From assembly GCF_003991155.1 (NCBI RefSeq), contig NZ_CP031293.1: a stretch of 64,000 bases of DNA. One strand, written 5' to 3'. This DNA is from Escherichia coli (GTDB taxonomy: Bacteria > Pseudomonadota > Gammaproteobacteria > Enterobacterales > Enterobacteriaceae). Both the position numbers and the translations under genes were made by a program. This document shows, one piece after another, positions 61,610 to 64,000 of the stretch; the stretch's first letter is position 1, and the number at the start of each line of letters is the position of its first letter. Under the pieces are notes generated by a model that was not told the origin of the DNA, did no database searches, and was given only the letters and a program-made list of their open reading frames with translations.

Positions 61610-61658
61610 TTATGACAACTTGACGGCTACATCATTCACTTTTTCTTCACAATCGGCA
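61610..61658 (-). pseudogene. orphan 3'-terminal fragment of araC (encodes ...DCEEKVNDVAVKLS stop), separated from the araC body by the inserted cassette
   Basis: Minus strand reads gattgtgaagaaaaagtgaatgatgtagccgtcaagttgtcataa, the AraC C-terminal codons as I recall them from K-12. Confidence 0.6.
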
Positions 61659-61678
61659 CAAAAGACACCCTCTGCCTA

Positions 61679-62101
61679 TCATTCGATAGTCTCAAAATAT
61701 TCCACCTGCAGAGAATCACGGTGCTCAATGATGCAATAACGCTGGAAATTATTTGCATAATCACTTTTATCATGAAAAAACCATATACAATCGTTTTGTA
61801 GACTCGGTCCCATTCCTTTCAAAAAATCTATTAGCTTTGCTTTCTGAAGAAAAATATTATCTATATTTCGCCATGTAACAATCACTCTTGTTTGCATATC
61901 ATCAACATTATAGTAATAGCTATACTCGGCTACGTTTGATATATTTGGCAAATTTCGCAAACTCTCTGGCGTATAAAGGAAAAATGGGGAAAGTTCATGC
62001 TGTGTATAGTGATGTTCCTTTGACATCAATGAGATATAAGCATAGAAAAATATAAAGAATAAAACTAAAAATGATAATAAAATATAAATATATTTTGACA
62101 T
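61679..62101 (-). CDS. hypothetical small membrane-anchored protein (N-terminal TM helix), second gene of an AT-rich two-gene cassette
   Basis: 140-aa ORF MSKYIYILLSFLVLFFIFFYAYISL...; ATG 6 nt downstream of the preceding ORF stop; low GC. Confidence 0.65.
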   Translation of the reverse strand: MSKYIYILLSFLVLFFIFFYAYISLMSKEHHYTQHELSPFFLYTPESLRNLPNISNVAEYSYYYNVDDMQTRVIVTWRNIDNIFLQKAKLIDFLKGMGPSLQNDCIWFFHDKSDYANNFQRYCIIEHRDSLQVEYFETIE

Positions 62102-62107
62102 CTCTAC

Positions 62108-62959
62108 TCACGACCTGTGCGGATAATGAGGGTTTAAGAAAAGAAAAAGCGGTCTTTCAAAGGGAGATTCTGAAAACTTTATAGCTCCCGAACTTGATAA
62201 TGAACTATACAACTCATGATTTATTCTGTTTTTATCTTTATAATAATTAGTAATAGGTCTATTATTATATTGATTATATAACAATGTTGAAAAAGACTCA
62301 TCTAATGGCTTTATATAATTTAACCATTCTGGAAGCTTCTTTTTTATTAGTTGATTTTTTTTAAAAGGAGGATGGGTTGTAAATAAGAATGGCGTAAACT
62401 CAGTATTTTTAAAATTCCCTGGCGCTCCATATGTATCCCATATTTGTAAGGCTTTTGTGTAAGATAAAGGTTTTGCCAATAAAAGTGGATCGGGGCCTGT
62501 TCCAAATACACGATAAAAACCAATCAAGTCTGAGACTAAATCTTCTGCACTAAATCCGCTATCAGTATACCAGTTAAAAATAAATGAGTTTTGCCATGCT
62601 TCAAACCTCTTCGCAGTTCCATACATTAACGTTAAGGCAACTCTTGCTTTAAGAGTGGGTGAAAGACATGAACGAACCATAACCTTCGTATAAACACCGG
62701 TATGAAATGTAAGATCTACTCCTAATATTTTTTCCCGAATTCCCATTTCCTGATGATAATCAACAGGAAAATACCAATCATGAAATTCATCGTAATATGT
62801 TGAAAAATGTTCTTGCTCCAATTTTCTTTTTAATATTCTGGCATCTTGTCCCTGAGCATGCCCCAAATCGATCCAACCTAACTCTTCGGTATAAACTAAT
62901 CCATACTTTTTCGTTGTTGCAAATATTCCATCAGTAATATCGTTACGTTTGCTCATCAC
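62108..62959 (-). CDS. hypothetical protein, 283 aa, first gene of an AT-rich two-gene cassette
   Basis: ORF MMSKRNDITDGIFATTKKYGLVYTEELGWIDLGHAQGQDARIL... with GAGGGGAGA Shine-Dalgarno upstream; no family recognised by eye; low GC. Confidence 0.7.
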   Translation of the reverse strand: MMSKRNDITDGIFATTKKYGLVYTEELGWIDLGHAQGQDARILKRKLEQEHFSTYYDEFHDWYFPVDYHQEMGIREKILGVDLTFHTGVYTKVMVRSCLSPTLKARVALTLMYGTAKRFEAWQNSFIFNWYTDSGFSAEDLVSDLIGFYRVFGTGPDPLLLAKPLSYTKALQIWDTYGAPGNFKNTEFTPFLFTTHPPFKKNQLIKKKLPEWLNYIKPLDESFSTLLYNQYNNRPITNYYKDKNRINHELYSSLSSSGAIKFSESPFERPLFLFLNPHYPHRS

Positions 62960-63435
62960 AATCTCCCCTCAAAAAAAACGTATAGCAAATAATATCAATA
63001 AGGAAAAATATTATTTTTCAATGTTTTTTTGTATACAATTCATTTTATGAATGAATTTACAAAGATAGCTGCGCCTGATACCGCTACACTTTTGCCAGAC
63101 CATGTTCTCCTCTGAGGGAGTAACTGGCGCTTTTCATAGAATGCCGTACTTTTTTCAACAACTGCCACATCGAACGGCATTTATGGTGGCGTGAAGTGCC
63201 TGCCATAACCGCTCAATGTGGTGTTCCTACGATGAACAAACCGCTTGATATATTCTCCTGATACAACCGGACAATATGTTCATGATGGGTATCCCGATAC
63301 ATAAGCCTTCGTTTTATTTTTACAAAAAGAAATCGTTGTCGATATTTTATCAAGAAAAAAATAATTCAGGTAAAACGATTCAACTAAAAATAACTAAAAT
63401 TAATCCCCCGTGAAATATATAAATAACGTCAGATG

Positions 63436-63468
63436 AAGAAAGCAAGGGGGGCCCCCCCTTGCTTTCTT
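63436..63468. repeat. near-perfect GC-rich palindrome at the araC-side boundary of the cassette (terminator-like)
   Basis: aagaaagcaagggggg / ccccccttgctttctt inverted repeat immediately after the araC stop. Confidence 0.6.
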
Positions 63469-63469
63469 A

Positions 63470-64000
63470 TTATTCACATCCAGCCCTAAACTCGCTCGGG
63501 CTGGCCCCGGTGCATTTTTTAAATACTCGCGAGAAATAGAGTTGATCGTCAAAACCAACATTGCGACCGACGGTGGCGATAGGCATCCGGGTGGTGCTCA
63601 AAAGCAGCTTCGCCTGACTAATGCGTTGGTCCTCGCGCCAGCTTAAGACGCTAATCCCTAACTGCTGGCGGAAAAGATGTGACAGACGCGACGGCGACAA
63701 GCAAACATGCTGTGCGACGCTGGCGATATCAAAATTGCTGTCTGCGAGATGATCGCTAATGTACTGACAAGCCTCGCGTACCCGATTATCCATCGGTGGG
63801 TGGAGCGACTCGTTAATCGCTTCCATGCGCCGCAGTAACAATTGCTCAAGCAGATTTATCGCCAGCAATTCCGAATAGCGCCCTTCCCCTTGCCCGGCGT
63901 TAATGATTTGCCCAAACAGGTCGCTGAAATGCGGCTGGTGCGCTTCATCCGGGCGAAAGAAACCCGTATTGGCAAATATTGACGGCCAGTTAAGCCATTC
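63470..64000 (-). CDS. araC: arabinose operon regulator AraC, 3' portion (5' end beyond window); C-terminus ends ...EFRAGCE, shorter than I recall for K-12
   Basis: Minus-strand frame open from window end: [51 protein letters not shown]...SEFRAGCE stop at 63470-63472. Confidence 0.9.

Follow-up and report, generated by a model that had tools for sequence, protein, structure and literature searches.

The elements e14 and phage 21 integrate in the 3′ end of icd and supply a substitute tail for the gene they enter. The araC–yabI interval in the Escherichia coli DNA analysed here (a stretch of 64,000 nucleotides, hereafter the window) resembles those insertions in that an incoming, largely synonymous 3′ end keeps the target functional, the displaced 3′ end is left orphaned at the opposite junction and the insert lies between direct repeats. 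It differs from them in carrying neither integrase nor excisionase and in substituting only five codons, and also in being a 1.8-kb mosaic of decayed pieces whose new araC tail would derive from a neighbouring island allele by homologous recombination rather than from an attP site. Flanking repeats drawn from the 3′ end of the target, as in integrative elements, were found, and a recombinase and recurrence of the element were not.

Integration hotspots between core genes fill through flanking homologous recombination. The araC–yabI interval is like them in holding at least 4 cargoes across strains and genera between sharp core-gene boundaries, with the difference that its araC boundary lies inside a coding tail and its fillings change the AraC C-terminus (281 versus 292 aa). 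In homology-facilitated illegitimate recombination of the de Vries and Wackernagel type, one side is anchored by homology and the other is joined without it, so that a little recipient sequence may end up duplicated; the araC side would fit the anchor, but the edge of the repeat varies less between hosts than would be expected from random joining. The natural 281-aa AraC proteins of Salmonella, the C. freundii complex and Klebsiella share both the SEFRAGCE-stop C-terminus and the length of the B2-type E. coli allele, yet there the native stop is followed directly by spacer, whereas the last five codons and the stops in the window appear to have been imported. We read the araC–yabI insert as an ordinary strain-variable hotspot filling, neither a defect nor a new mobile element.

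Composition and occurrence of the insert

The interval and its flanks were resolved into the following features.

60760–61524, minus strand: yabI, encoding a DedA-family protein, the core gene that bounds the hotspot downstream (open reading frame; annotation of an identical record)
61525–61609, minus strand: K-12-type araC–yabI spacer, unchanged (identical to empty-site strain G6/7)
61610–61663, minus strand: orphan araC 3′ end, codons 276–292 plus stop, reading FCADCEEKVNDVAVKLS and then the stop (52 of 54 nt as in K-12-type araC)
61664–61678, minus strand: short right flank of the two-gene module, without araC homology upstream of the TTT codon
61679–62101, minus strand: orf140, with an N-terminal membrane helix and a Mog1/PsbP/DcrB-like domain, the fast-evolving partner
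62108–62956, minus strand: orf283, a soluble protein at the edge of DUF4056 (12 of 40 homologues match PF13265)
62957–63067, minus strand: left flank and promoter region of the module, cut short by the IS element, with TA at 63066–63067 (assigned by homology)
63068–63262, minus strand: IS630-family remnant, made up of the element end and the closing (3′) part of the transposase gene (~80% identity with a plasmid-borne IS630-family element that is intact)
63263–63435, minus strand: rikA-island remnant, the first 13 codons of rikA (63263–63302) plus the upstream leader (~80% identity to the ST131-type allele L003)
63436–63468, strand not assigned: perfect 16+16 GC-rich hairpin directly after the araC stop (arms 63436–63451 and 63453–63468)
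63467–63487, minus strand: replacement araC tail AGG GCT GGA TGT GAA (R277–E281) plus TAA TAA, equal to the ST131-type tail
63470–64000, minus strand: araC, 281-aa allele, continuing past the window end (open reading frame; annotation of an identical record)

A first-pass annotation of this DNA had proposed that a cassette inserted inside the araC 3′ end, and foreign DNA does separate araC from the orphan, but not as a single cassette. The 1.8 kb between araC and yabI is AT-rich (27–38% GC versus 53–58% in the flanks) and, by homology, is evidently a composite of three unrelated pieces, namely a rikA-island remnant, an IS630-family remnant and a two-gene module. The araC-side piece is the start of the rikA–DHDPS–tctCBA island and supplies codons 277–281, both stops and the hairpin: window positions 63263–63487 are homologous to the araC-proximal end of the araC(281 aa)–rikA–DHDPS–tctCBA–yabI allele, with the island remnant following it, indels included, through the rikA start codon and then breaking off. 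Standing between the rikA piece and the module, the IS630-family remnant (a pseudogene in RefSeq) amounts to ~195 nt of 3′ end, lacks both an intact transposase and the two terminal inverted repeats, and keeps one true end beside a TA that is present at that end only. The stretch adjoining it (62957–63067) shares homology with the sequence that precedes the orf283 homologues of Citrobacter, Salmonella and Trabulsiella. No recombinase was found in the insert, which offers only the IS630-family pseudogene fragment and two proteins without a recombinase domain, and the Citrobacter and Salmonella module copies likewise have none within or adjacent to them.

Among 5426 complete E. coli genomes the insert occurred in 486 (~9%), at one locus only and in monomorphic form, with CFT073, Nissle 1917, 83972, IHE3034 and NC101 among the carriers. 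The araC(281 aa)–rikA–DHDPS–tctCBA–yabI allele was present in 572 genomes, including EC958, and ST131-type genomes, about 580 in number, share the stops, the replacement tail and the hairpin but have neither the orphan nor the two-gene module; taken together, the two alleles account for a 281-aa AraC in roughly one in five complete E. coli genomes. Neither the hairpin nor the module was seen at any other locus in the 5426 genomes, and a search of them at blastn sensitivity revealed no divergent or intermediate E. coli allele, neither one with an intact IS nor one in which the module retained its first left junction. A literature search on araC–yabI variation or truncated araC in CFT073 returned nothing relevant.

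AraC length, the orphan tail and the hairpin

Two in-frame TAA stops end araC in the window (63472–63470, then 63469–63467, minus strand). The early end relative to K-12 that had been read from the sequence was borne out, since araC is annotated as 846 nt and 281 aa in NZ_CP029747, a 100% identical record, versus 879 nt and 292 aa in an empty-site strain; the shortening, put at about nine residues, is in fact of 11 (EKVNDVAVKLS). Window araC differs from the K-12-type gene at 15 of 843 nt, with four of these differences clustered at −15, −13, −10 and −7 and none between −120 and −16, and its last 84 nt show no difference from the ST131-type allele.

The proposal that the missing codons survive as a stranded copy next to yabI also held on alignment to strain G6/7, which places the displaced K-12-type tail (…EEKVNDVAVKLS, then a stop) beside yabI, at the position first given for it but extending to 61663 rather than 61658. 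Positions 61519–61663 align to the araC–yabI interval of G6/7 with two differences only, both within the orphan and both transitions (CGT>TGT and GGT>GAT). Fourteen nucleotides of the orphan (61646–61659) are a copy of araC positions −14 to −1, and in CFT073, whose orphan carries one change only, this 14-nt repeat of the araC tail is perfect. The similar but non-identical sequences described at the two boundaries proved to be a 25-nt imperfect direct repeat (61639–61663 and 63466–63490, 18 of 25 positions identical), both copies of which represent araC codons 276–283. The araC-side copy spells RAGCE by different codons and then has two stops, and because the agreement on RAGCE is in frame a chance match is excluded. 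The orphan evidently belongs with the two-gene module and not with the araC-side piece.

In most of 80 enterobacterial loci AraC has 281 aa and the GCE end, and the taxa that combine this length with a compact araC–yabI interval are Salmonella, the C. freundii complex, Klebsiella, Kluyvera, Raoultella, Enterobacter and Kosakonia, whose sequence past the araC stop is homologous to the E. coli extension. These comparisons identify 281 aa as the native length of AraC in most Enterobacteriaceae and the 292-aa E. coli protein as the product of a TAA>GAA read-through into the spacer. The HTH_18 domain of window AraC is complete (profile positions 2–79 of 80 matched, ending 3 residues before the stop), and the solved DNA-binding domain of AraC (PDB 2K9S) spans residues 175–281. 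Since the 281-aa protein ends where that construct ends, no regulatory defect is expected, and with its DNA-binding domain complete it should, on prediction, work normally. As a natural form it does not warrant annotation as truncated or defective, a caution that applies to CFT073, Nissle 1917 and EC958, all strains in wide use. Nissle 1917, which needs araBAD in the gut, where a ΔaraBAD mutant had a colonisation defect of 2.7 log (PMC3547972), is among the genomes with this 281-aa araC allele.

The palindrome reported at the araC-side junction is there as described, with arms that are 100% complementary and abut the araC stops, and as RNA it has a folding energy of −25.6 to −31.9 kcal/mol (z −4.9 to −5.4). 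It is not a mark of the insertion that made the orphan, because the araC-side junction with its palindrome is common to ~580 ST131-type genomes that lack the orphan. A 56-nt query across the hairpin matched 1067 genomes at the araC locus only and Rfam held no family matching it, on which grounds a repeated palindromic or att-type element was rejected. The further suggestion that the palindrome and junction repeats might recur as the signature of a site-specific element likewise failed, given that the palindrome, the junction repeats and the module are confined to this one locus in E. coli and that a recombinase gene is lacking. The hairpin most likely insulates araC from downstream genes as a putative 3′ stem-loop or terminator, and the terminator role is called putative because no clean U-tract follows it, the scan having flagged only an inner 6-bp stem with a mixed C/U tail.

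Proposed assembly of the allele and competing explanations

The same module lies 3′ of araC in Citrobacter and Salmonella, where every copy is followed by an araC-tail repeat of 11–18 nt, and AraC has 281 aa in every filled site. The repeat is perfect over 17 nt in C. freundii, 15 nt in C. farmeri and 14 nt in Citrobacter sp. ANG330 (18 nt with one mismatch), and is decayed in C. portucalensis, in Salmonella and in the window. Where the Citrobacter host has a 292-aa AraC, the module produces just the structure pictured in the first-pass annotation: it cuts the protein to 281 aa, the insert providing the stop, and leaves a 14–15-nt repeat. All close relatives of the module neighbour araC, yabI, araD or polB, with araD–polB the commoner location of the closest ones. 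No flanking repeat was found at the araD–polB placements, in Yersinia or in Rahnella, and repeat-making as a general property of the module was rejected on that account. Also rejected were a move of the module from araD–polB to araC–yabI by inversion of the ara locus, since the genes that surround filled sites show no inversion of their order, and a plasmid origin, since plasmids gave only 13 distant matches (34–46% identity), none in E. coli. Other occupants of araC–yabI include the rikA island in Klebsiella spallanzanii, a reverse transcriptase in Yokenella and a fimbrial operon (L004) that is absent from all complete E. coli genomes.

We favour, at a probability of about 0.7, the reading that araC–yabI is a recombination hotspot and the window a composite allele built in several steps, whose order and mechanism are reconstructed from present-day alleles. 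The ancestral arrangement was evidently araC, ~122 nt and then yabI, with AraC natively 281 aa long (GCE-TAA). The orf283–orf140 module would then have inserted immediately behind codon 281 in an araC tail of the 292 type, bringing its own stop, duplicating the last ~14 nt of araC and stranding the original tail beside yabI as the orphan, an architecture seen today in Citrobacter and Salmonella. Subsequently an IS630-family element would have inserted ~110 nt upstream of orf283, homologous recombination in the last ~85 nt of araC would have imported the araC-proximal end of the rikA–DHDPS–tctCBA island (the synonymous 281-aa tail, tandem stops, hairpin and rikA leader), and a deletion from rikA codon 13 into the IS would have joined the pieces. 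On this reconstruction the locus offers a small, clean example of hotspot alleles assembled by homologous recombination and IS-associated deletion, in which such exchanges would rewrite the last codons of the core regulator AraC.

A competing account, which we regard as unlikely, takes the two-gene module for a site-specific cassette without a recombinase, moved by a host or helper enzyme and repeatedly targeted to the last araC codons, where staggered cuts ~14 bp apart would duplicate −14 to −1 and the left end would supply the stop. It draws on observations that sit awkwardly with the hotspot account, in that the repeat is perfect and host-type in four host backgrounds (E. coli CFT073, Citrobacter sp. 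ANG330, C. farmeri and C. freundii) and its left edge is nearly constant (−13 to −15), a constancy that is not obvious from random illegitimate joining and could indicate a specific mechanism. Moreover, the left end always begins with a stop (TAA or TGA) directly after codon 281, in ANG330 the filled allele matches the empty allele of the same species without a difference as far as either edge of the cassette, and two alleles that are only 79% identical stand in identical C. freundii-complex flanks. Yet no copy encodes a recombinase in or near it, the right ends differ between alleles, the araD–polB, Yersinia and Rahnella placements are repeat-free, E. coli has one monomorphic copy at one locus, and in 292-type hosts the left copy has T at +1 rather than the host G, so that it is not a pure target-site duplication; flanking homologous recombination, with the orphan refreshed by empty alleles, explains the same data. 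Slightly more doubtful still is the extended proposal that orf283–orf140 is a miniature mobile cassette, placed after codon 281 by a trans-acting enzyme with ~14 bp duplicated and a stop brought in, that thereby sets the AraC C-terminus and whose occasional loss may have made the K-12 292-aa AraC.

Loss also figures in the idea that the filled site is ancestral and that empty sites, K-12 with its 292-aa AraC included, arose by deletion between the tail copies after the orphan stop mutated to GAA. Recombination between the repeats would indeed restore an exact empty site, in C. portucalensis the orphan carries G at +1 where the native base of the host is T, and the 292-type tail is identical over 32 nt between E. 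coli and C. amalonaticus (L016). We nevertheless consider this improbable, as compact intervals lacking the module span about 70 species from many genera, the 292-aa form needs no more than one TAA>GAA change and the closest relatives of the module are more often at araD–polB. Least credible of all, and very improbable, is the single insertion of one 1.8-kb cassette envisaged in the first-pass annotation, with repeats and palindrome as its signature and AraC damaged: the orphan and early stop are real and repeats do flank the insert, but the insert comprises three unrelated modules, the palindrome and replacement tail also occur in ST131-type genomes without orphan or module, 281 aa is native in most relatives and the palindrome is not repeated elsewhere.

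The orf283–orf140 pair

The two-gene toxin–immunity systems of the CapCone-DUF4056 group (Lipocone) are the nearest comparison for the module. By itself orf283 scored 11.8 bits against PF13265 (E=0.15), below the Pfam gathering cutoff of 23.6, and the 12 of its 40 aligned homologues that matched did so at E<=0.01 (best 1.3e-6). Residues G27, H33, S133, S136 and D139 are invariant in 40 orf283-family sequences and fit the motifs described for CapCone-DUF4056, a Gly six residues before the active-site His and S/GxxSxx before a conserved Asp (bioRxiv 10.1101/2025.01.14.632903); the AF2 model of orf283 has a pLDDT of 86 and no PDB relative. The likeness extends to a soluble DUF4056-like protein with the Gly–His spacing and SxxSxxD, encoded alongside a small, fast-evolving, membrane-anchored protein, orf140, as effector–immunity pairs require. 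Cassette proteins diverge far faster than their flanks, orf140 being 26–46% identical between genera versus 87–95% for AraC.

The module differs from the CapCone-DUF4056 systems in the sub-cutoff score of orf283 and in its surroundings, since no secretion-system or delivery genes (VgrG, PAAR, Hcp, Eag; T6SS) lie near it in the window or in close relatives; for Salmonella, a bicistron with DUF4056 has been put forward as a candidate T6SS effector (PMC11669294). A defence system was considered and rejected, neither protein belonging to a PADLOC, NCBIfam or Pfam family. From family resemblance, orf283 and orf140 are most likely a candidate orphan pair of lipid-targeting effector and immunity-type protein; in their closest relatives they always lie beside ara genes. 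The orf283 reading frame of CFT073 is broken into two CDS, which may mean that the module is in decay and not functional. The partner also has a fold of its own, orf140 being Mog1/PsbP-like, as against the BamE-like fold of the most widespread immunity type (bioRxiv 10.1101/2025.01.14.632903).

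Composition of the araC-yabI insert

The feature between araC and yabI is an ordinary, strain-variable hotspot allele, and its parts, all on the minus strand, are as follows.

63263-63487: araC-proximal end of the rikA island (rikA-DHDPS-tctCBA), with araC tail, stops, hairpin, rikA leader and first 13 rikA codons
63068-63262: 3' end of an IS630-family element; an intact copy on a plasmid shares ~80% identity
61664-63067: two-gene module of orf283 (62108-62956) and orf140 (61679-62101), with its own conserved upstream region
61610-61663: orphan, the displaced K-12-type araC 3' end beside yabI

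Evaluation of the araC frame revealed a TAA stop at 63472-63470 followed by a second in-frame TAA, giving an 846-nt, 281-aa gene, the length annotated for araC in E. coli 2016C-3878, to which the window is 100% identical. Strains lacking the insert, such as G6/7, have an 879-nt, 292-aa araC with yabI directly next, which confirms the early end proposed in the first-pass annotation, except that AraC lacks 11 residues and not ~9. The missing codons are indeed beside yabI: 61519-61663 differs from the G6/7 empty site at just two positions on alignment, transitions that both fall within the orphan, which with these reads FCADCEEKVNDVAVKLS*. The similar motifs noticed at the two boundaries proved to belong to an imperfect direct repeat of 25 nt (61639-61663 and 63466-63490, 18/25 identical), two copies of araC codons 276-283, of which the araC-side copy encodes RAGCE in other codons (AGG GCT GGA TGT GAA) and then TAA TAA. 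The palindrome reported at that junction is also real, being a perfect 16+16 repeat (63436-63468) that overlaps the second stop and folds strongly as RNA. GC content is 27-38% across the interval versus 53-58% in the flanks.

The idea of a single cassette did not hold for the window, where the insert is a mosaic of three pieces. The rikA-island end matches the ST131-type allele at ~80% identity with indels before homology breaks off, a TA dinucleotide abuts the terminus of the IS630-family remnant, and the upstream region of the module is cut by this element ~110 nt before orf283. The window araC differs from K-12-type araC at 15/843 positions, four of which cluster at -15, -13, -10 and -7 (counted back from the end of the 281-codon gene) with none from -120 to -16, and its last 84 nt show no difference from the ST131-type allele. 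Judged from the sequences compared, this pattern argues that the araC-side replacement tail (63467-63487) was gained via a homologous crossover within the last ~85 nt of araC, and was not made by the event that created the orphan.

The two-gene module in other hosts

Homologues of orf283 (62-71% amino-acid identity), all paired with a protein of ~140 aa, occupy the araC-yabI interval in Citrobacter portucalensis, C. freundii, Salmonella enterica, C. farmeri and Citrobacter sp. ANG330, and in all five AraC is 281 aa and an araC-tail copy follows the module.

araC-tail copies after the module
C. freundii: CGCTGGATGTGAATAAA, 17 nt, perfect
Citrobacter sp. ANG330: GCGCCGGTTGTGAA, 14 nt perfect, 18 nt with one mismatch
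C. farmeri: CGCGCCGGTTGTGAA, 15 nt, perfect
C. portucalensis and Salmonella: decayed, imperfect

C. farmeri and ANG330 come from the 292-aa AraC group; in them the module provides a TGA or TAA immediately past codon 281 and the orphan goes on with GAAAAAGTG..., so that insertion inside the araC 3' end, as first proposed, is exactly the architecture of these two hosts. In CFT073 the orphan holds an exact 14-nt copy, GTGCCGGTTGTGAA, with one further G>A in the window lineage. The orphan thus goes with the two-gene module. Within a species, filled and empty alleles match exactly as far as the edges of the cassette, and the cassette proteins diverge far more than the flanks (C. portucalensis versus C. 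freundii: AraC and YabI 100%, orf283 79%, orf140 39% identity). The closest relatives otherwise lie between araD and polB in Trabulsiella, Enterobacter sp. ENT03 and four further contigs, with more distant ones elsewhere in Rahnella and Yersinia, and no flanking repeat was found at any of these placements. The closest pairs always sit immediately downstream of an ara transcription unit (araC or araD) and co-oriented (L036, L089, L102, L104, L105, L106; L084, L088, L090, L100, L101), which by position may reflect co-expression with the arabinose genes or merely neighbouring hotspots.

Neither protein matched a Pfam, NCBIfam or PADLOC family above threshold. orf283 is at the edge of DUF4056, with PF13265 matched by 12/40 homologues, and it has the CapCone-DUF4056 Lipocone motifs (Gly six residues before the conserved His; SxxSxxD). 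In Salmonella, a DUF4056 bicistron is a proposed candidate T6SS effector (PMC11669294), and by analogy orf283/orf140 may have an effector-immunity role; no secretion genes were linked to the pair. A 37%-identical homologue lies on the 2691-bp Erwinia sp. Ejp617 plasmid NC_017444 (1954-2652), so orf283-family members can travel on very small replicons. In the annotation of CFT073 (L103 1345-2192, 2615-2760), orf283 is divided between two CDS of 573 and 234 nt, which points to a frameshift in CFT073-type genomes.

Distribution in E. coli and probable history of the allele

Of 5426 complete E. coli genomes, 486 have the 1.8-kb insert, which is nearly monomorphic and lies at this locus in every one of them. 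Carriers include CFT073, Nissle 1917, 83972, IHE3034, NC101, ATCC 25922 and the type strain. Another 572 genomes, including ST131 EC958, carry araC(281 aa)-rikA (PfkB kinase with DeoR HTH)-DHDPS-like-tctC-tctB-tctA-yabI, with the replacement tail and stops as in the window, a degenerate hairpin and no orphan beside yabI. A 56-nt hairpin probe matched 1067 genomes, at araC in all, so the palindrome does not recur at other loci; these comprise window-like (82, perfect palindrome), CFT073-like (404, imperfect hairpin, tail AGG GCA GGT TGT GAA) and ST131-like (581) classes. Although hundreds of sequenced and annotated genomes carry the allele, the literature searched yielded no account of it.

In the best-supported history, the module would first have entered a 292-type araC tail by illegitimate insertion, once or a few times, leaving the tail duplicated; it would then have spread and swapped alleles via conserved flanks; and later, in E. 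coli, the araC-side junction would have been replaced by the rikA-island end, joined via an IS630-associated deletion. Random joining does not fully account for a repeat whose left edge hardly varies (-13 to -15) and whose sequence matches the host type perfectly in four host backgrounds, and we therefore keep a site-specific cassette mobilised in trans as an unlikely, minority alternative. However, no recombinase, recurrence at other loci or conserved right terminus was found for the insert, which counts against that alternative and argues against a self-contained site-specific element.

AraC length and other occupants of the interval

A compact araC-122 nt-yabI arrangement, taken here as the ancestral state, is general among 80 enterobacterial loci, and a 281-aa AraC ending GCE-stop occurs in S. 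enterica arizonae, the C. freundii complex, Klebsiella, Kluyvera, Raoultella, Enterobacter, Kosakonia and others. Because the E. coli extension has a homologous counterpart beyond the stop in Citrobacter and Salmonella (TAAaaagtgaatgatg...gttgtcataa), the longer, 292-aa form (E. coli, E. albertii, C. amalonaticus group) is a TAA>GAA read-through. Across Enterobacteriaceae the two lengths differ by this single change at codon 282 (L002 1711-1760; L016 and others ~9800-9880). A 32-nt stretch of the tail is the same in E. coli and C. amalonaticus (L016) while the genera differ elsewhere, which hints at possible horizontal exchange of the tail.

The 281-aa AraC of the window appears undamaged: its HTH_18 domain is complete, and the DNA-binding-domain construct of the solved structure 2K9S covers residues 175-281. 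AraC is required for araBAD activation. In Nissle 1917, which carries the window's araC allele, deletion of araBAD causes a colonisation defect of 2.7 log (PMC3547972); given that requirement, this indicates a working regulator. Assemblies of Photorhabdus namnaonensis (L005) and Xenorhabdus szentirmaii (L006) have ~6.5-kb contigs with AraC 100% identical to the 292-aa E. coli protein, probably pBAD-type vector contamination.

The rikA island also occupies the interval in Klebsiella spallanzanii. A record titled E. coli SCPM-O-B-8794 (L004 10303-17764) has a chaperone-usher fimbrial operon there, with yabI only 93% identical; none of the 5426 complete E. coli genomes has this operon, so the strain may belong to a divergent Escherichia. 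In Yokenella regensburgei (L061 9827-10861) the interval contains a 344-aa reverse-transcriptase (RVT_1) gene on the opposite strand, possibly a defence gene of the retron type. In C. amalonaticus AUH_CA_2023_1 (L025 ~10100), yabI matches from residue 50 only and the DNA is out of register with a conspecific after 277 nt, suggesting an indel or frameshift.
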